This document shows positions 12,651 to 29,123 of a DNA stretch of 32,000 nucleotides, one piece after another. How positions within the stretch are numbered: position 1 is the first letter of the stretch; each line of letters opens with the position of its first letter. The stretch is from Pseudidiomarina andamanensis. Its GTDB lineage: Bacteria > Pseudomonadota > Gammaproteobacteria > Enterobacterales > Alteromonadaceae. Both the position numbers and the translations under genes were made by a program. The notes below the pieces were generated by a model. That model ran no database searches and was not told where the DNA came from. It worked only from the letters and a program-made list of their open reading frames with translations. Location of the stretch: assembly GCF_009734345.1 (NCBI RefSeq), contig NZ_CP032551.1, positions 1,860,001 through 1,892,000 on the forward strand. Direction: 5' to 3'.

Positions 12651-12986
12651 ACGCACTAATAATCCACTCATTTCATGCAAATGCTGAGCAATACGCAACA
12701 CTTCTTCGTTTGGTATTTGACGAATCACTTCGCCGGTGTCTTGGCTCACAACTTTCACAATCGTGCGGCCTGACCCATCATCAAACTCAAAATGAATGCC
12801 ATAGTTATTCATGACTTCATTAATCTGTTGAACTGGTTTCACTAACTCGTCTTTTTTTATTTCTCGTTGCGCTTCGCTTTGACGCACTGCAGGTAATTGC
12901 TGCAATACGCGGTCTAGTCGCTGCTTTTCAGCGGCAGCGGTTGTCACCGGCCAATTTGAAGTGGCTTCATTAATTGGGGTAGCCAT
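12639..12986 (-). CDS. flaG: FlaG family flagellar protein
   Basis: 115 aa. The FlaG signature is ...FEFDDGSGRTIVKVVSQDTGEVIRQIPNEEVLRIAQHL.EMSGLL. The gene has its own sigma28 promoter. Confidence 0.8.
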   Translation of the reverse strand: MATPINEATSNWPVTTAAAEKQRLDRVLQQLPAVRQSEAQREIKKDELVKPVQQINEVMNNYGIHFEFDDGSGRTIVKVVSQDTGEVIRQIPNEEVLRIAQHLHEMSGLLVREEA

Positions 12987-13004
12987 AGTGTTATCTCCAA
13001 AATA

Positions 13005-13022
13005 CGAAAATATTTTTCGCTT
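13005..13022 (-). repeat. Copy A of the 18-nt motif AAGCGAAAAATATTTTCG (contains CGAAAA-ATA-TTTTCG palindrome)
   Basis: The minus-strand reading is identical to the plus-strand 14437-14454. It starts about 2 nt after the expected flaG transcription start. Confidence 0.7.
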
Positions 13023-13030
13023 ACATTGGA

Positions 13031-13057
13031 ATATCGGCTGAAAACGTACAAACTTTA
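13031..13057 (-). promoter_or_regulatory. sigma28 (FliA) promoter of flaG
   Basis: The minus strand reads TAAAGTTT-gtacgttttca-GCCGATAT. That is the enteric consensus TAAAGTTT-N11-GCCGATAA with one mismatch, 45 nt upstream of the flaG ATG. Confidence 0.8.
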
Positions 13058-13083
13058 GCCGGTTTTTCTAGCTCTAATCCTTC

Positions 13084-13434
13084 TTACAAAGTCGAAGCTA
13101 ATTCACTGACTTTGTTATATAAATTCATGATGGCAGAAAGTGCAACGCGCTCGCTGTCATCCAATTCCAAATAGGTGTTCTCGGCACGCCGGCCTTCCGG
13201 CTTAATAATATGAGCGTAACGGGTCAACAGATGCTCTAAATTCATCTGAATCATCATCAGTTCCAGCTGAAACTCCTGCTGATAAACCTGATATTTTTCC
13301 TGTTGCTGCGCATCCTTGCTGTTTTCAATAGCGGCTTTGAGTTTGCTTTCCAAAATGAACTCGACCGTTTTTAGCTTAGGTATCACATCATTGATCAGTT
13401 GCTCTGATGTGACGGTTGCGCTTACAGAATTCAT
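13084..13434 (-). CDS. Hypothetical small helical protein (116 aa) between fliC and flaG
   Basis: The ORF has AGGTAGGA upstream and is Q/E/L-rich, with no motif I recognise. Only its genomic context is flagellar. Confidence 0.55.
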   Translation of the reverse strand: MNSVSATVTSEQLINDVIPKLKTVEFILESKLKAAIENSKDAQQQEKYQVYQQEFQLELMMIQMNLEHLLTRYAHIIKPEGRRAENTYLELDDSERVALSAIMNLYNKVSELASTL

Positions 13435-13454
13435 CGCTGTTATCCTACCTGCCT

Positions 13455-13484
13455 ACAAACAAAACAGGCCCCCTAAGGAGCCTG
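13455..13484 (-). terminator. Rho-independent terminator after fliC
   Basis: Minus-strand RNA CAGGCUCC-UUAG-GGGGCCUG (8-bp stem including one G.U pair), followed by UUUUGUUUGU. It begins 27 nt after the fliC stop. Confidence 0.6.
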
Positions 13485-13511
13485 CTATTAAGTTTGGCAC
13501 TAGTTGAGGTA

Positions 13512-14336
13512 TTAACCCAACAGTGACAATACTGACTGTGGTACTTGGTTTGCCTGTGCCAGTACTGAAGTACCAGCCTGCTGCAAGATCTGAGCACGAG
13601 TCATGTTTGATACTTCAACTGCATAGTCAGCATCTTCGATACGTGAACGTGCCGCTGATAAGTTAGTTGAAGTTGTTGCTAAGTTTTCAACTACTGAATC
13701 AAAGCGGTTCAGGGTCGCACCCAAAGTGCTGCGCGAGGTGTCAATTGTTGCCATGGCGGTATCAACGGCATCAATTGCTGCTTGAGCATTTACAGCGCTA
13801 TCAACAGTCAAAGCGTTTACGCCAAGTGTTGCTGAAGTTGCGTCTACAGTAGCGACTTGAATTGAATCATTTGCAGTTGTGTTTGCGCCAACTTGAATCT
13901 GTAATGGTGCTAGAGCGCTTCCGTCAAGCAAGTTTGTGCCGTTGAAGCTTGCGCCGCCAGCAATACGGTCGATTTCCGCAACACGCTCGGTGATTTCTGT
14001 TTGAATTGAAGTACGGTCATCAGCGCTGTTAGTATCAGAAGCTGCTTGAACTGCCAATTCACGAATACGTTGCAAGTTGTCGTTGATTTGGTTTAAGCCG
14101 CCTTCCATGGTTTGCACCATAGAGATACCGTCGTTTGCGTTACGCTGAGCTTGACGCATACCAGTAATTTGTGCAGTCATGCGGTTAGCAATTGCTTGAC
14201 CCGCTGCATCGTCTTTGGCGCTGTTGATACGCAGGCCTGAAGACAGACGTTCCATTGAAGTTTGCAGTGAAGACTGTGACTTCTGGAGGTTTTGCTGACC
14301 GATCAGTGAGGTCATGTTTGTGTTGATAACTGACAT
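13512..14336 (-). CDS. fliC: Flagellin (short form, D0/D1 only)
   Basis: 274 aa. N-terminus MSVINTNMTSLIGQQNL...LSSGLRINSAKDDAAG; C-terminus ...LSAARSRIEDADYAVEVSNMTRAQILQQAGTSVLAQANQVPQSVLSLLG. Confidence 0.95.
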   Translation of the reverse strand: MSVINTNMTSLIGQQNLQKSQSSLQTSMERLSSGLRINSAKDDAAGQAIANRMTAQITGMRQAQRNANDGISMVQTMEGGLNQINDNLQRIRELAVQAASDTNSADDRTSIQTEITERVAEIDRIAGGASFNGTNLLDGSALAPLQIQVGANTTANDSIQVATVDATSATLGVNALTVDSAVNAQAAIDAVDTAMATIDTSRSTLGATLNRFDSVVENLATTSTNLSAARSRIEDADYAVEVSNMTRAQILQQAGTSVLAQANQVPQSVLSLLG

Positions 14337-14394
14337 AGTCTTATTCCTTCTGTTTCCAAATTAGGCTGCCTAGTTTGGCCTGCCGTCGCTAAGG

Positions 14395-14421
14395 GTTATC
14401 GGTGGCTGTAAAAAAACCTTT
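14395..14421 (-). promoter_or_regulatory. sigma28 promoter of fliC
   Basis: The minus strand reads TAAAGGTT-tttttacagcc-ACCGATAA, 58 nt upstream of the fliC ATG. Confidence 0.75.
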
Positions 14422-14436
14422 AGAAATTTTTTTCAA

Positions 14437-14454
14437 AAAGCGAAAAATATTTTC
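14437..14454 (+). repeat. Copy B of the 18-nt motif AAGCGAAAAATATTTTCG
   Basis: Exact repeat of 13005-13022 (reverse complement). It lies between the -35 boxes of the divergent fliC and ycgR-like promoters. Confidence 0.7.
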
Positions 14455-14491
14455 GAATGCCACAACAACGCTTGCTATATTAAGGGCTAAC

Positions 14492-14518
14492 TAAAGGCAT
14501 GAGCGCTTATGCCGATAA
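14492..14518 (+). promoter_or_regulatory. sigma28 promoter of the PilZ/HD-GYP gene
   Basis: TAAAGGCA-tgagcgcttat-GCCGATAA, with a perfect -10 box and exact N11 spacing. It ends 36 nt upstream of the GTG start. Confidence 0.8.
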
Positions 14519-14554
14519 ATGGAATCAGATTATAACTAAGGAAAGGAGCATCGC

Positions 14555-16270
14555 GTGAGCGAGGCCAGTCAACACGCTCAAACGAGCGAAAATGAATTTA
14601 CGCCAATAAATAGCTTGGTTGAACTTGCGACATATTATGACGCATTGAGTCAGCCGGGCGTGGCGGTGTTGACGCTGCTTGGGCCTGCGGAAAAAGATCA
14701 TCCGGTAGTGCTGGTTGAACAACTCGAAGAAGATTACCTCCTTTTTGATCTCACCGCGATTCGTGATGTTGCGCCGCCTCTGCGTCGCGGTGGCAAATTT
14801 ATCCTTTCCGGTTTCACGCCAGGCGGACTCGTCCGCTCAAACCCCATGTCAATTCGTGAATTCACCACGGTTGATAGTCGTTTATTAGCTTACGCTGATT
14901 GGCCCACTGAAATTCATGTGAAGCAACGCCGAGCAAGTTTCCGTGCGAGTTTGCGTATTGGCATGAACGTGGGTGTGCATGTGCGCACCAAAGATAACGA
15001 TAAAGATGAATTAGTCGAGTTGCAGGGCGACTTAAAAGACTTATCGGCGACCGGCTGTTTGGCCGAATTCTTTATGCAAGACGGCGTGTCGCGGGTATTG
15101 CCCGATATTGCAACAGAGATTGAACTGTATTTTCCAAACGGAACATCATTTGAAGTTAAAGCCAAAGTGCGGCATTTGAAAACAGATAATGATCGGCAAG
15201 TTTTGGCGGTTGGTTTTGAGTTTGAAAATGTGAGTCAGCCGCAAGAGCGTGAAATTTGGGGTTATGTACGTGAAATTGAGCGTGAAGCTTCACGTAGCGC
15301 GGGTAACGGGGATAGCCGCAGTGAATCAGAGTTATTCCGCGTTCGTGATGAGAACGATATGAAGTTGAGCCGCCGTCATGGGCATACTTATGCGACACCA
15401 ATGGCTCGGAAAATGGCCCGCATTGCTGGTTATCTTGATAGCCAGATGGTCGTGATGAAGCAAGGCCAAGCGGTGAATTCATCGCAGCTGTCGCTTCATG
15501 CGGACCGAATTTTGGACATGCTCGAAGATGATCGCCAGGAAACCTTGTTTTCAGTGCATTGTATTCATCGCGAATCGCGTTGGGTAAAACACGGTCTTGC
15601 TGTGGCGGTACGTTTAGCGGACTTGTTGAATGCCGCGAAGATGCCGCGCGATTTGCGCAAGGCAGTAGTTGCTGCGGCAATGGTTCATGATCTCGGTAAA
15701 GGGACGCTTCCTCCAGAAATTTGGAAGGCGACCACGCTAAGCACTGATATTTATGAAGAAATGCAAAGCCATGTGGAAGCTATTATTGAGAAGCTTAGTG
15801 GCGTCAAGTGGCTTGCTCCGGTGGTGAGAGACAATGTGATTGCACAAATCAATGAACGCTTGGATGGTTCGGGTTATCCAAATGGATTGAAAGACAAGCA
15901 ACTTGGTCAGTTAGCGCGAGCGGCGGCGGTGGTTGATGCAATTGACGCGGTTCAACGCCACCGACCAGATCGCCCAGCGATAACGCCAGTTGCTGCCGGT
16001 AAGTCAATGCAAACACGGCTGGAGCAGTTTGATGAAGCCTGGGTGAAAAGGTATGTTGCTCACTTTGGCCCACTTCCAATTGGTTCGTTGCTACGTTTTG
16101 AAAAAGGGCAGTTCGGTTGGGTTGTTGGCCTCGATGCCAAAAAGCGAGTCAACCGTATACGTCTTTCACCTCATAAATTGGCACCTGATGATAAGTTAGG
16201 CCCGCCCATTGAAGGCGCTGCTTTGGCCGAATTAGGGCGCATTCGTGACGTTTTAATACCGGAAAGTTAA
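14555..16270 (+). CDS. YcgR-like (PilZN + PilZ) c-di-GMP receptor fused to an HD-GYP domain with non-canonical metal motif
   Basis: GTG start with AAGGAAAGGAG upstream. Residues ~1-250 are collinear with YcgR: RRASFR (125-130, RxxxR), DLSATG (162-167, DxSxxG) and the tail FEFENVSQPQEREIWGYVREIEREA. Residues ~330-520 are HD-GYP: HDLGK (378-382), ERLDGSGYP (434-442) and VDAIDAV. The two His normally preceding E434 are I432 and N433. Confidence 0.85.
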   Translation: MSEASQHAQTSENEFTPINSLVELATYYDALSQPGVAVLTLLGPAEKDHPVVLVEQLEEDYLLFDLTAIRDVAPPLRRGGKFILSGFTPGGLVRSNPMSIREFTTVDSRLLAYADWPTEIHVKQRRASFRASLRIGMNVGVHVRTKDNDKDELVELQGDLKDLSATGCLAEFFMQDGVSRVLPDIATEIELYFPNGTSFEVKAKVRHLKTDNDRQVLAVGFEFENVSQPQEREIWGYVREIEREASRSAGNGDSRSESELFRVRDENDMKLSRRHGHTYATPMARKMARIAGYLDSQMVVMKQGQAVNSSQLSLHADRILDMLEDDRQETLFSVHCIHRESRWVKHGLAVAVRLADLLNAAKMPRDLRKAVVAAAMVHDLGKGTLPPEIWKATTLSTDIYEEMQSHVEAIIEKLSGVKWLAPVVRDNVIAQINERLDGSGYPNGLKDKQLGQLARAAAVVDAIDAVQRHRPDRPAITPVAAGKSMQTRLEQFDEAWVKRYVAHFGPLPIGSLLRFEKGQFGWVVGLDAKKRVNRIRLSPHKLAPDDKLGPPIEGAALAELGRIRDVLIPES

Positions 16271-16299
16271 ATCATTTCTTCGGTAAGTAAAAAAATCTC

Positions 16300-16326
16300 T
16301 AAAGTTGAACAAATTGTCGCCGATAA
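16300..16326 (+). promoter_or_regulatory. sigma28 promoter of the fliD operon
   Basis: TAAAGTTG-aacaaattgtc-GCCGATAA, 93 nt upstream of the fliD ATG. Confidence 0.8.
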
Positions 16327-16419
16327 ACATGAATAGGCGTGTTTTGCGTCGCTTTTTATCGGTTTTGAATTGAATTTATTCATGCAAACTGATTGGTATG
16401 AGAAATAGGGGTTAGCACC

Positions 16420-17778
16420 ATGGCATCAATAGCAGCATTAGGTATCGGTTCGGGCCTCGACCTGAACGGCTTACTAAATCAGCTGGAAGCAGCTGAGCGG
16501 CAGCGCCTACAACCGATCTCGTTACAGCAAAAGAGCTTTGAAGCGAGAATTTCTGCCTATGGCAAGCTACAGAGCGCGTTAACTAAATTTCAAGACGCAA
16601 CTAGCGCTCTCAATTTAACGCCAACATTTAAAGCGACGAAAAGCTCAGTTAATTCTGATGTGCTGACTGTTGCCGCTGCATCGAATACACCGACGGGTAC
16701 CTTCGACGTCAATGTGACGGGGTTAGCTAGAAGCTATAGCATCGCGACTCAGGGAGTTACTGATAGTGCTGCACAAATTGGAACAGGTACGGGAAATGTA
16801 AGCTTAACTCTAGCGAATGGTACAACACATAGTATCGATTTAGCGGATGGCGCAACGTCGTTAGAAGATATTCGAAGTGCCGTAAATAACGCACAAACTG
16901 ATGTTCAAGCTTCAATTATAAATGATGGAAGCGGTAGCCCATATCGGTTGGTTTTTAGTTCCGCAAGCACAGGAACCGATTCTGCTATTGCTGATATCAC
17001 ATTCGGAGGCGCTCTTGCTGGCAATGTGGCGACGGATGTCTCTACTGAAGTGGCTGCATCAAATGCAACGCTTTCGGTCAATGGTGTTGCTATTACTAGT
17101 CAGACAAATGTTGTAGAGAATGCAATTCAAGGTGTAACGCTTTCGTTGGCGAAAGAAGGGCAAGCGCAAGTCAGTATTACGCGTGATGCCGAATCAATTT
17201 CAGGAAATGTGAACGACTTTGTTGCGTCATTTAATGAGCTCCAGCAACTCATTACTGATATGACGAAATACGACGAAGGCTCACAAGTTGCTGGCCAGTT
17301 GTTAGGTGACAGTGGCGTGAGAACGATCGAATCTCGTCTTCGAAACCTGCTGAGTGAGACGGTTGCTAGTCAGTTTACCAAGCTTGGTGATATTGGCATT
17401 TCGCGAGAACTTGGCGGCAAGTTAAAGGTGGATGAAGAAGCGCTCGCAAATGTCGTCCAAAATGACTTGCCAATGTTGCAAGAGTTTTTCGCAGGTACAG
17501 ATACTATAGAAGGCTTTGCCGACAAGGCAAAGACAACGCTGAGTAATCTTTTAGCCGATGAAGGCCCAATCAATAGTCGAATCAAAGGGTTCGAGAGTAC
17601 GCTCGAGCGCTTAGATGACCGTTACTTCCAAGAAGAACAACGAATTGCATCAACAGTGGAAATCTATCGTAAGCAATTCGCACAAATGGACAGCATGATT
17701 GCGAGCATGAATTCAACCAGTGCTTATTTACAGCAACAGTTTGCTTCGCTGAATGCGCAATTAGGCCAAGGTAACTAG
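16420..17778 (+). CDS. fliD: Flagellar filament cap protein FliD
   Basis: 452 aa. The N-terminus is MASIAALGIGSGLDLNGLLNQLEAAERQRLQP, and the C-terminal coiled coil is ...YRKQFAQMDSMIASMNSTSAYLQQQF. Confidence 0.9.
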   Translation: MASIAALGIGSGLDLNGLLNQLEAAERQRLQPISLQQKSFEARISAYGKLQSALTKFQDATSALNLTPTFKATKSSVNSDVLTVAAASNTPTGTFDVNVTGLARSYSIATQGVTDSAAQIGTGTGNVSLTLANGTTHSIDLADGATSLEDIRSAVNNAQTDVQASIINDGSGSPYRLVFSSASTGTDSAIADITFGGALAGNVATDVSTEVAASNATLSVNGVAITSQTNVVENAIQGVTLSLAKEGQAQVSITRDAESISGNVNDFVASFNELQQLITDMTKYDEGSQVAGQLLGDSGVRTIESRLRNLLSETVASQFTKLGDIGISRELGGKLKVDEEALANVVQNDLPMLQEFFAGTDTIEGFADKAKTTLSNLLADEGPINSRIKGFESTLERLDDRYFQEEQRIASTVEIYRKQFAQMDSMIASMNSTSAYLQQQFASLNAQLGQGN

Positions 17779-19724: not shown

Positions 19725-19803
19725 TATTGACTAACAGTGTTAAATTTTGCTAAAGATCGCATCAAGAATCAAAAACAATCAGCAGTGTTGGAGAAATGCT
19801 CCC

Positions 19804-20103
19804 ATGAGTCACAGCAAGACTATTTCTGAACTTCAGGAATTAAACCTCAGTTATCTGATGTTGGTTCAGAAATTAATCGTCGAAGATCGCGATACCGCAA
19901 TTTTCCGATTAAAAATCGACGATGAATTAGCTGATCTCATTGCTGATATGTCCGCGAAAGAATTAACCATGTTGGCGCGCCAACCACAAAGCCTTTTACA
20001 ACCTAATTTGGGTCCGGTAAGTCAGTTGAAAGCAATTTTGACAAACAAACGGGATACCGGAATGCAGGCAACTCATTTAGCGATGTACATGGCGTCAGCT
20101 TAA
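19804..20103 (+). CDS. flhD: Flagellar master regulator subunit FlhD
   Basis: 99 aa counted from ATG 19804 (GGAGA 9 nt upstream). TISELQELNLSYLMLVQKLIVEDRDTAIFRLKIDDE matches the enteric FlhD N-terminal region (...NLSYLLLAQRLI...MFRLGI...). Confidence 0.9.
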   Translation: MSHSKTISELQELNLSYLMLVQKLIVEDRDTAIFRLKIDDELADLIADMSAKELTMLARQPQSLLQPNLGPVSQLKAILTNKRDTGMQATHLAMYMASA

Positions 20104-20123
20104 ATATGAAAGAAGAGTCATAG

Positions 20124-20669
20124 ATGACCGCCAAAAAACTTCTTGAAGAACTCAACCAAGTGCAGCTTGCAATAGAGCTCATTGAACTTGGTGCGCGCTT
20201 GCAAGTTCTGGAGTCTGAGGTGAGTTTAAATCGCGGCCGTTTGGTAAGGTTGTATAAAGAAGTGTCGGGTAAATCTCCGCCCAAAGGGATGCTGCCATTT
20301 TCAACCGATTGGTTCATGACCTGGCAGCCGAACGTGCACTCATCGTTCTTCTATAATATTTACTCAAAGTTGCGTGAAGGGCAGAGATTAGAGCGCATGC
20401 AGGCCTTTATTAAGGCCTACAAACTCTACCAAGAACATATCCAATTAAGCGGCGAAGAAGAAGTTTTAGCTTTAACGAGAGCTTGGACGCTTGTACGCTT
20501 TTTTGAAAGTGATATGTTCCAGTTGTCTAAATGCACCTGCTGCGGGCTTCAATTCGTCAATCACGCCCACACACCAGACGCCGATTATGTTTGCGGTGTT
20601 TGCCAACCGCCGTCGCGCGCAGGAAAACCACTCAAACAAAAAACCTTAAAAATTCGAAAAGAAATTTAA
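20124..20669 (+). CDS. flhC: Flagellar master regulator subunit FlhC
   Basis: 181 aa with LGARLQVLESE, PPKGMLPFSTDWFMTW, LTRAWTLVRFFES and the four-Cys zinc site CTCC...CGVCQPPSRA. Confidence 0.95.
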   Translation: MTAKKLLEELNQVQLAIELIELGARLQVLESEVSLNRGRLVRLYKEVSGKSPPKGMLPFSTDWFMTWQPNVHSSFFYNIYSKLREGQRLERMQAFIKAYKLYQEHIQLSGEEEVLALTRAWTLVRFFESDMFQLSKCTCCGLQFVNHAHTPDADYVCGVCQPPSRAGKPLKQKTLKIRKEI

Positions 20670-20692
20670 GTCTCCCTCTGACGCGCCGATAA
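20666..20692 (+). promoter_or_regulatory. sigma28 promoter of motAB
   Basis: TTAAGTCT-ccctctgacgc-GCCGATAA, with a perfect -10 box and 6/8 match in the -35 box. It overlaps the flhC stop and ends 36 nt upstream of the motA GTG. Confidence 0.65.
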
Positions 20693-23737: not shown

Positions 23738-25818
23738 AGTTAAGCATGAATGCCCTAGCAGGGAGCTTCAGTTCGGCACGCTTACAGGTTTTAGTTGGGC
23801 CAGTACTCATCCTCATGATTTTAGCGATGATGGTGCTGCCGTTACCACCATTTGCACTTGATTTTCTATTCACGTTTAACATTGCGCTGTCGTTAATGGT
23901 TTTGTTGGTGAGCATGTTCACTGAAAAGCCACTTGAGTTTGCTGCTTTTCCAGCGGTTTTGCTGTTTTCGACCCTGCTACGCTTGTCACTGAACGTTGCT
24001 TCAACCCGTGTTGTGTTAATGGAAGGCCACAACGGTGGCGATGCCGCCGGTAAAGTCATTGAGGCGTTCGGACAGTTCTTGGTGGGTGGTAACTTTGCTG
24101 TTGGGTTGGTGGTGTTCTTAATTCTCGTTGTCATCAACTTCATGGTTATTACAAAGGGCGCGGGGCGTATAGCCGAAGTGGGCGCTCGCTTCACGCTTGA
24201 TGCCATGCCCGGTAAGCAAATGGCTATTGATGCTGACTTGAATGCTGGTTTAATTGGCGAAGAAGAAGCGCGTCGTCGTCGTCAAGAAGTCGCACAAGAA
24301 GCAGAATTCTACGGTTCAATGGATGGTGCCAGTAAGTTCGTTCGAGGCGATGCTGTTGCTGGCATGATTATCATGGTGGTCAACATTATTGGTGGCCTAT
24401 TGATAGGTGTTATGCAACACAACATGAGTGCCGGTGCTGCAGCAGAAACTTACGTGTTGTTAACCATCGGTGATGGTTTGGTTGCACAAATTCCTGCCTT
24501 GATCATTTCAACCGCTGCTGGTGTTACGGTTTCTCGCGTAAATACCGAGCAAGATGTGGGGCAGCAGTTAATCAAGCAACTGTTTGTCAGCCCCAAAGTG
24601 TTAATGCTATCAGCCGGCGTCATTGGCATGCTGGGCCTAGTACCGGGAATGCCCAACTTTGTATTCTTGTTGTTTACCGCGATGTTAGGCGGTTTCGCAT
24701 GGTACTTACACAAGCAGCAAACCGCTGAAAAAATGGCTGCAACGCAGTCTGAGCAAGTGGCGCCCGCGCCGTCATTCAGCGCACCAGAAGCCAGTTGGAA
24801 TGACGTTCAGTTGGTTGATACGTTGGGGATGGAAGTTGGCCACCGTTTAATTTCCTTGGTAGATGATACCCAGCAAGGTGAACTACTTGGCCGCATTAAA
24901 AGCGTTCGTAAGAAGTTCGCACAAGAAGTAGGTTTTCTACCACCAGTTGTTCATATTCGCGATAACCTTGAGTTAAACCCCAACACCTACACCATTACCT
25001 TGAAAGGTGGAGAAATTGGGCGCGCCGAAATTTATCCAGATCGCTGGTTAGCGATCAATCCAGGTCAGGTGAGTGGTGAAGTTGAAGGTATCGACACCAC
25101 AGACCCTGCGTTTGGTCTTCCCGCGAAATGGATTAGTCAAGATCAACGCGAACATGCTCAAATCTATGGGTATACAGTTGTTGACGCGAGTACCGTGGTT
25201 GCGACGCATCTTAACCATCTATTGCAACGTTACGCATCTGACTTGCTCGGTCGTCAAGAAGTGCAACAGTTGGTTGATAAACTATCAGAAGAAAACAAAG
25301 GCTTAGTCGAAGATGTGGTGCCAAAATGTGTTACCGTAACCACGTTACAGCGTGTGCTACAAAACTTGCTTGAAGAAGATGTTTCGATTCGCGATTTGCG
25401 CACTATTTTTGATACGTTGGCTGAGTTTGAAGGGCAGCAAGCTGATGCTCATGAATTGACGGCGCGTGTTCGTATTGCTCTTGGTCGAAATATCACGCAG
25501 AAATGGTTTGGTGGCGAGCGCGAATTGCAGGTGATTGGTTTAGATGTTTCGCTGGAAAATATGCTGTCACAAGCGTTGCAACAAAACAGTTCACTGGAAC
25601 CAGGATTAGCGATGACGTTGCAGGAACAAACTCAAAAAGCACTGCGTCAGGCAGAAACGCTGGGCTTGGCACCTGTGTTAGTGGTGCCGCATCAGTTGCG
25701 CCCGTTATTGTCGCATTTCTTACGCCGTCAGCTCCGTGATTTAGTGGTAATATCGCAAGCCGAAATTCCAGATGACAGAACCATTAAAGTAGTCAGTGTT
25801 ATTGGAGGGTCACAATGA
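23734..25818 (+). CDS. flhA: Flagellar export gate protein FlhA
   Basis: 694 aa, FHIPEP family: ...GNFAVGLVVFLILVVINFMVITKGAGRIAEVGARFTLDAMPGKQMAIDADLNAG.... It shares an ATGA overlap with flhB. Confidence 0.97.
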   Translation: MKLSMNALAGSFSSARLQVLVGPVLILMILAMMVLPLPPFALDFLFTFNIALSLMVLLVSMFTEKPLEFAAFPAVLLFSTLLRLSLNVASTRVVLMEGHNGGDAAGKVIEAFGQFLVGGNFAVGLVVFLILVVINFMVITKGAGRIAEVGARFTLDAMPGKQMAIDADLNAGLIGEEEARRRRQEVAQEAEFYGSMDGASKFVRGDAVAGMIIMVVNIIGGLLIGVMQHNMSAGAAAETYVLLTIGDGLVAQIPALIISTAAGVTVSRVNTEQDVGQQLIKQLFVSPKVLMLSAGVIGMLGLVPGMPNFVFLLFTAMLGGFAWYLHKQQTAEKMAATQSEQVAPAPSFSAPEASWNDVQLVDTLGMEVGHRLISLVDDTQQGELLGRIKSVRKKFAQEVGFLPPVVHIRDNLELNPNTYTITLKGGEIGRAEIYPDRWLAINPGQVSGEVEGIDTTDPAFGLPAKWISQDQREHAQIYGYTVVDASTVVATHLNHLLQRYASDLLGRQEVQQLVDKLSEENKGLVEDVVPKCVTVTTLQRVLQNLLEEDVSIRDLRTIFDTLAEFEGQQADAHELTARVRIALGRNITQKWFGGERELQVIGLDVSLENMLSQALQQNSSLEPGLAMTLQEQTQKALRQAETLGLAPVLVVPHQLRPLLSHFLRRQLRDLVVISQAEIPDDRTIKVVSVIGGSQ

Positions 25819-27917
25819 CCATTAGGCGCTTCCGAGCAGCCAGCCACAAAGATGCGATGCGCAAAGTCCGTGATGCACTGGGCGATGACGCAGTTATTGT
25901 TTCATCACGTAAGACAACGCAAGGTGCAGAAATTTTTGCCATTGGTGAAGCCGATTTGGCAAAGCTTCATGATGCTGAAGATGAGTCGGCAACCACAACA
26001 CCAGATTTTTCCGGCATTGCTCAGCAGTTATTGAGCGATGTTCAAGATATGCGTGCCATGCTACATCAACAGCAAGGCGACAAAGTGCCGGACGACAATC
26101 GTAAACGGCTGTATCGACAGCTTCGCGCAGGGGGGTATAGCGATACACTGAGTCGTCAATTAGTCGCGTTACTGCCGTCAACATTAAATCACTCCAATAA
26201 AACTTATGCTGAAGCACTAAAGTGGCTACAACAGCAAGTTGTCGCACGAATTTCCCACCAGTCAGACATGCAAGTACATGATTGGGAGTTGCTTCAACAT
26301 CAAGGCGTGATGGCACTTGTTGGGCCAACTGGTGTGGGTAAAACCACAACCACTGCGAAGCTAGCTGCGAATTATGTCATGCAACATGGCAACGATAGTT
26401 TGTTGTTGGTGACTACCGATAGCTATCGTATCGGCGCGCAGCAGCAACTAGCGATATACGCCGAGCTGCTTGATGTGCAAATGCACGCATTGGCGGATGG
26501 CGATACGCTAGATTCATTGGCAGAAAAGATGCAAGGCAAGCGTTTGGTATTGGTTGATACCGTCGGCATGAGTCAGCGTGATCAGCGCCTCGCGCAAAAA
26601 ATTGCGGCACTTGGCAGCGCCGAGAATCATGATTCGACGCGTATCGTGTTATTGCTGAATGCAGCGGCGCAACAAGAAACCCTCGATGAAGTAGCTCGTA
26701 TTTATCAGCGTATTGCCAGCGAAAGTGATTTGACTATCCACGATTGCATTTTGACAAAATTGGATGAAACGGCGCGCATGGGTGGTGTATTGGATACCGT
26801 CATACGACATAAACTGACGGTTCAAGCCACTTCATCAGGGCAACGTGTTCCTGAAGATATTCAAGTGCCGGATGTGGAGCAATTGGTTGCGGACTCATTG
26901 ACGGCTGAGGTCAGTCAGTCAGCACTCGCTGAAACGGAGTGGGAGCATGGCGATGAAAAGCTCGAACCGTCGCAAGTATTCGCACACGGCCATTTAATTC
27001 AATCGAGCATGCAGGCGTTGCGCCATCAGGTACCACATTTTCAAGAGCTTGTGCAGGCTTGGAAGCATAGGGTATTGCCTGAAAGCTGGGTCAACACAGC
27101 GTTTCCTGATGAACTCAATATGATTCGATGGGCGGCGCCACAACCGTTGCAAGGTTGGAATCATTTAACACCGCATTTAGGTTTAAGTAAGCAAGGTTTG
27201 CCGTTACTGCCGCCGGTTCTTCACAGCGCTGAAGAACCAGTGTTACCCGATATGGCGTTAGCGCCGGTGCAATTGTTTGATTATCTGCCGCAAACCGACT
27301 TGCTGGGCGTTTTTTCTGAACATCAAACGGGTTGGTTAGCTACGTTGAATCTGAATCACAAAGTACAGGTTCAAGGTCAGTCGCGAGCCGTTAGCGAGTT
27401 GGTCAAAAAACACAGTATTCCCTTAAGTAAGCACACTATTCTTTATCGTGGCGAGCGTCGCCGTCTTGAACTTACCGTTGCTGCGGCAGAATCAGAACAG
27501 ACTCAGCAATTGGTTCAAGTGGTGTATGGCGAGTTACATGGCGGGCCGAGTAAGAACCCAATACAGCGCCGTTATTGGTTAGCTGATGGCCATTGCACAG
27601 CAGAACAAGTGGTTGAGCGTGCGCGCACCATGATGCAGCTGGAAGAATATGCCCGACTGACGCGTCTGGCATGGCGTGCTTTAGGGAAACTTGATTTAGA
27701 CGGCGACACGCAATTGGCTTTAGCCGGGGCATTAGCTGCAGTGACCTTGCACGTTGAATATCATGGCGCCGCGCAGTTTGCTGGGTTAAGAGGCGAGCTT
27801 CTTAGTATTAGTGGCAAGCGCGGTCGCGTTCAAGGTGATAAACTGCTTCCCGCAATTTTGCACGTGATGCATGCCTACGAGTCATTAGTGGCAGCAGGCC
27901 GTGAAGTAGAGGCATAA
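25815..27917 (+). CDS. flhF: SRP-type GTPase FlhF with a long C-terminal extension
   Basis: The N-terminus MTIRRFRAASHKDAMRKVRDALGDDAVIVSSRK is FlhF-like. GTPase motifs are G1 GPTGVGKTTT (170-179), DSYRIGA, DTVGMSQRD and TKLDE, with GQRVPEDI at 342-349. The ORF then continues for a further ~340 aa to residue 700 with no motif I recognise. GGAGGG lies upstream, and the start shares an ATGA overlap with flhA. Confidence 0.85.
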   Translation: MTIRRFRAASHKDAMRKVRDALGDDAVIVSSRKTTQGAEIFAIGEADLAKLHDAEDESATTTPDFSGIAQQLLSDVQDMRAMLHQQQGDKVPDDNRKRLYRQLRAGGYSDTLSRQLVALLPSTLNHSNKTYAEALKWLQQQVVARISHQSDMQVHDWELLQHQGVMALVGPTGVGKTTTTAKLAANYVMQHGNDSLLLVTTDSYRIGAQQQLAIYAELLDVQMHALADGDTLDSLAEKMQGKRLVLVDTVGMSQRDQRLAQKIAALGSAENHDSTRIVLLLNAAAQQETLDEVARIYQRIASESDLTIHDCILTKLDETARMGGVLDTVIRHKLTVQATSSGQRVPEDIQVPDVEQLVADSLTAEVSQSALAETEWEHGDEKLEPSQVFAHGHLIQSSMQALRHQVPHFQELVQAWKHRVLPESWVNTAFPDELNMIRWAAPQPLQGWNHLTPHLGLSKQGLPLLPPVLHSAEEPVLPDMALAPVQLFDYLPQTDLLGVFSEHQTGWLATLNLNHKVQVQGQSRAVSELVKKHSIPLSKHTILYRGERRRLELTVAAAESEQTQQLVQVVYGELHGGPSKNPIQRRYWLADGHCTAEQVVERARTMMQLEEYARLTRLAWRALGKLDLDGDTQLALAGALAAVTLHVEYHGAAQFAGLRGELLSISGKRGRVQGDKLLPAILHVMHAYESLVAAGREVEA

Positions 27918-28421: not shown

Positions 28422-29123
28422 ATGTATACAGCTGAAGGTAAGTTCAACAAGCACAGTATAATCGAACAGTATTATCCACTGGTTCGGCGCCAAGCGTTTA
28501 GCTTAAAAGTTAAACTGCCTGCAGGCGTTGATGTGGATGATTTGATTCAAGCTGGTGTTGAAGGCTTACTGAGCTGTGTCGACCGTTTTGATCCTGATTC
28601 GGGTGTGGCATTTTCGACTTATGCTCATCAACGTATTCGTGGTGCGATGATTGATGAACTGCGTAGTCGCGATTGGCTCCCTCGCAGTGTTCGGCGCAAT
28701 GGTCGCGAGTTAGAGCAAACCATTCGTAAACTAGAGCAGCGACTTGGGCGCCCGCCCGAAGAACGCGAAATTTCCGCAGAATTGAACATGGATTTGAACG
28801 AATACCATCAATTATTGCTCGATACCAACAATGGCTTGGTTTTGTCATACGACGAAGTGGTATTTGAAACTCCCGGTAATGAAACTAACGATGACGAAGA
28901 TACAGAGCCAGAAACTCAAATTGGCAATGCGCAGCTAAAGCAGCTATTAGTAGAAGCAATTGATATGCTTCCTGAGCGTGAAAAATTAGTCATGACGCTC
29001 TATTATCAAGAAGAACTTAACCTCAAAGAGATTGGCGCAGTACTCGATGTTACCGAATCACGTGTATCGCAGTTACATAGCCAAGCGATCAAACGAATTC
29101 GAGCACGGGTTGCCACCGATTAA
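28422..29123 (+). CDS. fliA: Flagellar sigma factor FliA (sigma28)
   Basis: 233 aa. YTAEG...QRIRGAMIDELRSRDWLPRSVRRN...LLDTNN...LPEREKLVMTLYYQEELNLKEIGAVLDVTESRVSQLHSQAIKRIR is very close to enteric FliA. Confidence 0.92.
   Translation: MYTAEGKFNKHSIIEQYYPLVRRQAFSLKVKLPAGVDVDDLIQAGVEGLLSCVDRFDPDSGVAFSTYAHQRIRGAMIDELRSRDWLPRSVRRNGRELEQTIRKLEQRLGRPPEEREISAELNMDLNEYHQLLLDTNNGLVLSYDEVVFETPGNETNDDEDTEPETQIGNAQLKQLLVEAIDMLPEREKLVMTLYYQEELNLKEIGAVLDVTESRVSQLHSQAIKRIRARVATD

Follow-up and report, generated by a model that had tools for sequence, protein, structure and literature searches.

Within a 32,000-nucleotide (nt) stretch of the Pseudidiomarina andamanensis genome (contig NZ_CP032551.1, positions 1,860,001 to 1,892,000; hereafter the window), an open reading frame (ORF) of 571 amino acids (aa) encodes a protein that joins a PilZN-like β-barrel and a PilZ domain to an HD-GYP domain with an altered active site (Table 1). 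The gene lies between fliC, encoded on the opposite strand, and fliD-fliS-fliT on its own strand, in a window that is nearly all an FlhDC-type flagellar cluster. An earlier note on this DNA had described the gene as a YcgR-type flagellar brake fused to an HD-GYP domain whose HHE motif reads INE. The reading frame with its GTG start was reproduced, and the start is backed by homologues of 568-571 aa that align from residue 1. The motif positions given there were likewise recovered: RRASFR (125-130, RRxxxR) and DLSATG (162-167, DxSxxG), the motifs for cyclic diguanylate (c-di-GMP) in the PilZ domain, and HDLGK (378-382) and ERLDGSGYP (434-442) in the HD-GYP domain, with INE at residues 432-434 in place of HHE. 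The HD-GYP residues of interest are E340, H346, H378-D379, K382, H406, I432-N433-E434, G440-Y441-P442, D461, D464, R470 and R473.

The N-terminal half resembles the flagellar brake proteins. In a phmmer search of PDB sequences, residues 55-247 matched the YcgR-type protein PP4397/FlgZ (2gjg, E 1e-8) across both domains. A structure was predicted with AlphaFold2 from an alignment of 20 family sequences (mean predicted local distance difference test, pLDDT, 84; predicted template-modeling score 0.71) and compared with the PDB by Foldseek. The N-terminal module matched PP4397 (E 3e-13), E. coli YcgR, MrkH, PlzD/VCA0042 and MotI, with about 240 columns aligned to PP4397, YcgR, PlzD and MotI. Over 241 aa, the first 260 residues also share 37% identity with a 259-aa Microbulbifer protein that stands alone and that NCBI names a "flagellar brake protein". 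YcgR of E. coli and Salmonella and FlgZ (PP4397) of Pseudomonas, the best PDB matches, share the two-barrel PilZN-PilZ arrangement and the RxxxR and D/NxSxxG motifs, but the Pseudidiomarina protein carries some 320 additional C-terminal residues comprising the linker, the HD-GYP domain and the β domain. The profile check proposed in the earlier note bore out part of the layout, with PilZ, HD_5 and HD all matched.

For the C-terminal half, the sequence search returned PmGH (4mcw), V-cGAP3, DvhD and PA4781, and Foldseek returned Bd1817, DvhD, PmGH and PA4781. Helices at 228-251, 282-302 and 309-333 are predicted in the linker region, and canonical HD-GYP proteins of about 400 aa align into the C-terminal β region, to about residue 530. 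The model aligns with Bd1817 (PDB 3tm8, 309 residues) over about 350 columns, with a template-modeling score of 0.56 on the target, which exceeds the HD-GYP domain alone; the succession of PilZ, long helix and HD-GYP may therefore parallel the DUF3391, helices and HD-GYP of the Bd1817 family.

To score the active site, residue roles were taken from PmGH (PMC4159591) and transferred through the alignments with the PDB matches and with a set of 25 canonical HD-GYPs. Of the eight residues that ligate metal in PmGH, five are kept: H189 as H346, H221 as H378, D222 as D379, H250 as H406 and D305 as D461. These include the complete H...HD...D set, which in classical HD domains forms the single-metal site. 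Other PmGH residues are kept as well, namely D183 (E340), K225 (K382), D308 (D464), G284-Y285-P286 (G440-Y441-P442), R314 (R470) and K317 (R473). The three ligands that are lost are E185, which corresponds to the variable R342, H276, which is I432, and H277, which is N433, an invariant Asn. I432 and N433 stand opposite the His pair in alignments with PmGH, V-cGAP3 and PA4781 and opposite Met-Asn in DvhD. A shifted His pair, which the earlier note had raised as a possibility against itself, was rejected, there being no His pair nearby. E340 was considered as a third-metal ligand equivalent to PmGH E185 because it is invariant; this was also rejected, as E340 falls on the D183 column (H-6) and the E185 column (H-4) holds R342. 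The active phosphodiesterases PmGH, PA4781 and TM0186 thus share with the Pseudidiomarina domain the fold, the HD, the GYP and the equivalents of H189, H250, D305, D183/K225 and D308, but differ from it at the His pair and at E185.

The INE triplet is not an accident of one gene. A word-indexed search gave 279 relatives, and the best 120 of these, at a level of about 40% identity, were analyzed; all combine PilZ with HD_5 and are about 550-600 aa long. Their sources are Pseudidiomarina, Aliidiomarina, Idiomarina, Zobellella, Oceanisphaera, many Halomonas/Billgrantia, Onishia and Halochromatium. Identity is 97% to the protein of Pseudidiomarina marina and 95% to that of P. donghaiensis. The triplet preceding xxDGxGYP is INE in 86 of the 120, VNE in 16 and ANE in 12, with TNE, LNE and ANQ in the rest and HHE in none; position 432 is thus I, V, A, T or L. 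The survey of INE against HHE proposed in the earlier note accordingly finds x-N-E throughout, save for the one ANQ-type class, and as far as these alignments go the INE-type motif is a family-wide feature, not one peculiar to the Pseudidiomarina gene, which the earlier note had not seen. All 120 relatives carry R125, R126, R130, S164, G167, E340, H378, D379, H406, N433, G438, G440, Y441, P442 and D461; H346, K382, E434 and R473 are present in 119 and R470 in 112. With five of the eight PmGH ligands, the GYP and the phosphate-binding Lys and Arg invariant or nearly so, the site is constrained and not decaying. Since H346, H378, D379, H406 and D461 are among these residues, a metal site is almost certainly kept in the fliD-linked clade, judging by conservation.

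For a wider view, 1.84 billion cluster representatives were searched exhaustively with HMMER, which gave 82 clusters at E<1e-30; 77 representatives with the PilZ motif present and a length of 480-660 aa were aligned. HHE appeared in one of the 77, a sequence whose PilZ motif columns fail to align, so that no credible HHE was found. Distant branches, at about 25-30% identity, degenerate further, with D379 replaced by T, N or A (HT being what is reported for ECA3548) and D461 by K; the combination of HT, HN or HA with Lys for D461 occurs only in these branches. In a scan of one genome per species, a relative is encoded in 396 species genomes.

Promoter and position place the gene among the late flagellar genes. 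The whole window was scanned with the sigma-28 pattern TAAA-N15-GCCGATA, allowing at most one mismatch, with 100 shuffles as a control. Six matches were found against 0.46 expected, and none of the shuffles reached six; five of the six stand just 5' of late flagellar genes (flaG, fliC, the PilZ-HD-GYP gene, fliD and motA). The promoter that the earlier note called near-perfect is an exact match, and the gene does sit between sigma-28-type motifs of the divergent fliC and of fliD. Because fliA lies in the window as well, the sigma factor expected at these promoters is encoded 12 kb downstream. A scan of 12900-16500 for sigma-70 promoters and terminators gave nothing above chance; the PilZ-HD-GYP stop codon has no clear terminator 3' of it, and transcription may thus read through into fliDST.

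The arrangement is shared by relatives. In 77 of 78 retrieved loci fliD-fliS-fliT or fliS-fliT lies directly 3' on the same strand, Zobellella being the exception; fliS is directly 3' in many Halomonas loci, and in Idiomarinaceae fliC is divergent and upstream, as in the window. Of 75 loci searched up to 350 nt upstream of the orthologue, 29 have a sigma-28 motif that satisfies the strict pattern and about 13 others one with TCAAG for TAAAG, the genera with such a motif including Pseudidiomarina, Zobellella, Oceanisphaera, Onishia and Halomonas. On this pattern of promoter and synteny, we assign the PilZ-HD-GYP gene to the flagellar regulon, in its predicted late, FliA-dependent class. The same can be said of ycgR in E. 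coli and flgZ in Pseudomonas, which have sigma-28 promoters within the flagellar regulon.

The cluster begins with flgL, then fliR through fliH, fliG and fliF on the minus strand, followed by fliE, flaG, a 116-aa ORF and fliC; after the PilZ-HD-GYP gene come fliD, fliS, fliT, a second gene for a Flg_hook-domain protein, flhD, flhC, motA and motB, and then flhB, flhA, flhF, a 163-aa ORF and fliA. The 116-aa ORF has no Pfam or NCBIfam match; tblastn finds it in the corresponding place in many loci of Pseudidiomarina and close to fliC in several of Halomonas, and it is probably a conserved flagellar accessory protein without a name. The window has a single fliC, as against four to six tandem flagellin genes 5' of the PilZ-HD-GYP gene in related Idiomarinaceae (L003 3846-7257; L016 3042-7012; L012 5332-7340). 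Two proteins with the Flg_hook (FliK C-terminal) domain are encoded, a 416-aa FliK in a fliH-fliK operon and a 275-aa protein directly 3' of fliT, where it is kept in nearly all related loci; the latter has a weak match to YscP-type length determinants. FlhDC and the FlhF GTPase are found together in this one cluster. The FlhDC master regulator is typical of enteric-type peritrichous systems and FlhF of polar ones. FlhF is 700 aa long, with an SRP54-type GTPase domain at residues 165-360; for the roughly 340 residues at its C-terminus the only match, and a partial one, is to the long FlhF model of the PRK14723 type. Neither Pfam nor NCBIfam matches the ORFs of 163 aa and 165 aa; the former sits between flhF and fliA, an interval usually occupied in polar systems by FlhG/FleN.

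Table 1. Features of the PilZ-HD-GYP gene and of its surroundings in the window.
Feature	Position	Strand	Description
ORF, 571 aa	14555..16270	+	GTG start; PilZN-like, PilZ, helical linker, HD-GYP (INE variant), C-terminal beta domain
Sigma-28 (FliA) class-III-type promoter, predicted	14492..14518	+	TAAAGGCA-N11-GCCGATAA; exact TAAA-N15-GCCGATA match; 37 nt before GTG
Ribosome-binding site	14540..14548	+	GGAAAGGAG; 6 nt 5' of GTG; read from the sequence
PilZN-like beta-barrel, N-terminal	14597..14923	+	About residues 15-123; PP4397 sequence match from residue 55; Foldseek matches to the full module
PilZ domain	14924..15271	+	Residues 124-239; Pfam PF07238, E 8e-11
Linker	15272..15559	+	Residues 240-335; long C-terminal PilZ helix, low-confidence segment, two long helices into HD-GYP
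HD-GYP domain	15560..16066	+	Residues 336-504; Pfam HD_5 350-494 (E 5e-19) plus HD; PmGH, DvhD and PA4781 alignments
Codons for I432 N433 E434	15848..15856	+	ATCAATGAA; in the canonical HHE position
C-terminal small beta domain	16067..16267	+	Residues 505-571; PIGSLxRF..G..xWV motif; AlphaFold2 strands 512-567, pLDDT >90
Sigma-28-type promoter of fliC, divergent, predicted	14422-14397	-	TAAA-N15-GCCGATA pattern
Sigma-28-type promoter of fliD-fliS-fliT, predicted	16300..16325	+	In the 149-nt gap 3' of the 571-aa ORF
Sigma-28-type motif 5' of flaG	13057-13032	-	TAAA-N15-GCCGATA pattern
Sigma-28-type motif 5' of motA	20666-20691	+	TAAA-N15-GCCGATA pattern
fliA (sigma-28)	28422..29123	+	233 aa; Pfam Sigma70_r2, r3, r4; end of flhBAF cluster
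ORF, 116 aa	13084-13434	-	Between flaG and fliC
FliK, 416 aa	5609-6859	-	Flg_hook domain
Flg_hook protein, 275 aa	18550-19377	+	3' of fliT
FlhDC	19747-20669	+	
FlhF GTPase	25815-27917	+	700 aa
ORF, 163 aa	27925-28416	+	Between flhF and fliA
ORF, 165 aa	30396-30893	+	

Paralogues were also encountered. In Halomonas sp. BC04, which carries a fliD-linked copy (P0118), a second PilZ-HD-GYP gene (L079 6001-7626) is broken into two overlapping ORFs, one of 264 aa with PilZ and one of 315 aa with HD_5, the break being a frameshift or an assembly error, and lies directly 3' of two GGDEF-domain genes. Its front half is P0197 (264 aa, 40% identical to the N-terminal half), which was for this reason rejected as a natural stand-alone orthologue. 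More degenerate paralogues, with HA or HT for HD and Lys for D461, lie outside flagellar clusters, at L080 959-3944, 35 nt 3' of a REC-EAL gene, and at L081 630-5491, next to a 1033-aa dCache-PAS sensor protein. By analogy, the pairing of these non-flagellar paralogues with REC-EAL or sensor genes recalls that of HnoD and HnoB.

Two proteins described previously allow a closer comparison. ECA3548 of Pectobacterium atrosepticum has an HD-GYP domain that is inactivated, HD being changed to HT and HHE to ANE, and joined to a YcgR-like PilZN-PilZ module (Galperin & Chou, bioRxiv 10.1101/2021.11.05.467447; PMC4212101). It is reported to have hydrolyzed neither c-di-GMP nor pGpG, its overexpression reportedly raised c-di-GMP and affected motility, and it was predicted by Galperin & Chou to bind c-di-GMP and not to hydrolyze it (bioRxiv 10.1101/2021.11.05.467447). 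It has the same three-part architecture as the Pseudidiomarina protein and likewise x-N-E for HHE, ANE in the one and INE in the other, but it has lost the Asp of the HD, whereas H378-D379 and D461 are retained in the Pseudidiomarina protein and throughout its clade. ECA3548 was not located among the relatives, and the HT/HN/HA-type representatives that we looked up were Halomonas/Billgrantia or metagenome proteins only. Papers on a Dickeya HD-GYP were set aside as precedent because they concern a REC-type protein.

DvhD of Desulfovibrio vulgaris, reported in 2026, is a direct sequence and fold match of the Pseudidiomarina HD-GYP domain. It reads SQ for HD and MN for HH (PMC13090378; PDB 9RBZ/9RC0), and crystallography and isothermal titration calorimetry showed that it binds c-di-GMP with a dissociation constant of about 99 nM without metal or hydrolysis (PMC13090378). 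Its c-di-GMP contacts K582, Y621, R650, Y652, M646 and L577 (PMC13090378) correspond to K382, Y441, R470, D472, V466 and V377. The three phosphate contacts (the GK Lys, the GYP Tyr and the Arg of RxxR) are therefore kept, and both proteins have a hydrophobic residue and Asn in place of the His pair. They differ in that DvhD has SQ for HD, N/C for D461/D464 and no metal, whereas the Pseudidiomarina protein keeps HD, D461 and D464, and in that the base-clamping Y652 is D472 in the latter. DvhD also serves a Lap-like adhesin system, as a membrane receptor of the dCache-PAS type, and is not flagellar.

These precedents bear on how new the protein is. The earlier note implied novelty, which does not stand: PilZ-HD-GYP fusions were already listed in 2006, when PilZ was first described, and a protein of this kind has been tested in the form of ECA3548. 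The architecture is common, as the species count given above indicates, and it has been functionally characterized in part, through ECA3548. The Pseudidiomarina protein is an uncharacterized member, in a distinct HD-retaining fliD-linked clade, of a kind of protein already described in outline.

We favor, with moderate confidence, the view that the gene encodes a late-flagellar c-di-GMP-responsive effector, in which the N-terminal half acts as a YcgR/FlgZ-like module and the HD-GYP is a non-canonical regulatory or second-ligand domain, probably holding one metal. Homology and synteny suggest the flagellar role, and mutational and structural precedent suggests the loss of hydrolysis. The gene would be a late sigma-28 class III flagellar gene whose product belongs to a widespread gammaproteobacterial PilZN-PilZ-HD-GYP family. 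The intact PilZ site of its YcgR/FlgZ-type module would bind c-di-GMP, and the bound module would act, by analogy, on the flagellar motor or on a late flagellar component to lower motility. Because the His pair is lost (HH to IN) and the third-metal Glu was never present, the HD-GYP domain most likely performs no canonical c-di-GMP hydrolysis; with its H...HD...D mononuclear site, the GYP Tyr and the phosphate-binding Lys and Arg retained, it probably tunes the brake, whether as a second domain for sensing nucleotide or as a regulatory one. The earlier note had put forward three options, a self-resetting brake, a local c-di-GMP sink at the motor, and an impaired HD-GYP turned second binding or output domain; the last fits the comparative and literature evidence best, and the first two keep some probability because HD, H346, H406 and D461 are retained.

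Several observations weigh against this assignment of roles. The YcgR-like module, supported by the PilZ match, the PP4397 sequence match and Foldseek, was not matched by the Pfam PilZN profile (YcgR_N, PF07317), which gave nothing at E<=1 in the protein or in 20 family members; PF07317 is matched in P0184, a distant member of the same architecture. The base-clamping Tyr that DvhD and PmGH have in common (RxYK/R) is Asp472 in the Pseudidiomarina protein, which makes it less than certain that the HD-GYP domain binds nucleotide. The motor as the target is suggested by the homology of the N-terminal module and by the gene neighborhood only, and no paper on members of the fliD-linked clade was found in the literature searched, including that on Halomonas/Idiomarina PilZ/HD-GYP. 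Finally, the two non-hydrolyzing precedents, DvhD and ECA3548, had also lost the HD dyad. The fliD-linked clade keeps it under strict selection, so that some hydrolytic activity or a non-canonical catalytic center keeps some probability.

This last point leads to an alternative in which the domain is still an enzyme, the H...HD...H...D residues and the invariant Asn433 forming a non-canonical metal center that hydrolyzes c-di-GMP or pGpG, and the protein a phosphodiesterase that is gated by PilZ, associates with the motor and works as a self-resetting brake or local sink. Near-invariance of the five ligands and of the E340/K382 pair (D183/K225 in PmGH) among the 120 relatives exceeds what a scaffold would need. 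Asn is able to serve as a metal ligand, and there are HD-domain hydrolases that are mononuclear. An analogy is also at hand in E. coli, where the brake YcgR and the phosphodiesterase PdeH (YhjH) are both class III, so that a receptor and a phosphodiesterase-type domain are there, too, expressed from sigma-28 promoters with late flagellar genes; PdeH, however, is an active EAL enzyme on its own chain and the Pseudidiomarina domain an HD-GYP fused to the receptor and probably inactive. The His pair is the main obstacle, as H276A or H277A alone abolishes PmGH activity (PMC4159591). The third-metal Glu is absent as well, with the variable R342 at H-4. With the His pair missing from all of the roughly 77 cluster representatives and D379 and D461 lost in the deeper branches, the lineage reads as having left catalysis early, and we consider a retained enzyme unlikely. 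The more specific proposal that H346/H378/D379/H406/N433/D461 constitute an unrecognized type of HD-GYP metal center, with Asn for His and without the His pair yet still catalytic, and that the fliD-linked clade is a PilZ-gated motor phosphodiesterase and single-chain self-resetting brake, strikes us as quite unlikely.

A different role for a degenerate HD-GYP domain would be protein-protein interaction, regulating a partner GGDEF or EAL enzyme and so coupling flagellar status to c-di-GMP turnover. Precedents are HnoD, which inhibits the REC-EAL protein HnoB, and RpfG, which recruits GGDEF proteins and a PilZ adaptor, and the rise in cellular c-di-GMP on ECA3548 overexpression would fit. Distant members of the same architecture do adjoin turnover or sensor genes, as in L079, L080 and L081, but no GGDEF or EAL gene is present in the window or in the conserved neighborhood of the fliD-linked clade, and a surface-interaction role leaves the invariance of buried metal-site residues unexplained; we give the idea little credence. 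A further reading concerns the products of fliD, fliS and fliT, which are the filament cap, the flagellin chaperone and an FlhDC antagonist, respectively. The protein might control late flagellar assembly through these in response to c-di-GMP with no braking of the motor, as they and not motAB or the switch genes are its most constant neighbors, and read-through into them may occur. Class III genes are commonly clustered without direct functional pairing, however, and the N-terminal module has its homologues among YcgR/FlgZ/MotI-type proteins, which are known to target the stator or the rotor; we consider such a role improbable.

In enteric bacteria, c-di-GMP control of swimming is split between the brake YcgR and the phosphodiesterase PdeH. 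Many halophilic and marine gammaproteobacteria, including Idiomarinaceae, Halomonadaceae, some Chromatiaceae and Oceanisphaera, instead have one conserved late-flagellar gene in which a YcgR-like receptor and an altered HD-GYP domain are fused. Since the literature already knows an inactive HD-GYP fused to a YcgR-like module, the gain would be incremental and not conceptual unless the domain is catalytic. More would be at stake if it proved catalytic, or if the protein were shown to have a second site for c-di-GMP whose role at the motor is defined; with a catalytic center, one protein would clear c-di-GMP locally and do the job of E. coli YcgR plus PdeH. The HD-GYP domain may be a residual enzyme, a regulator that depends on metal or a second sensor of c-di-GMP, and which of these it is bears on the re-use of degenerate HD-GYP domains and on the wiring of c-di-GMP control of the motor beyond the model organisms.

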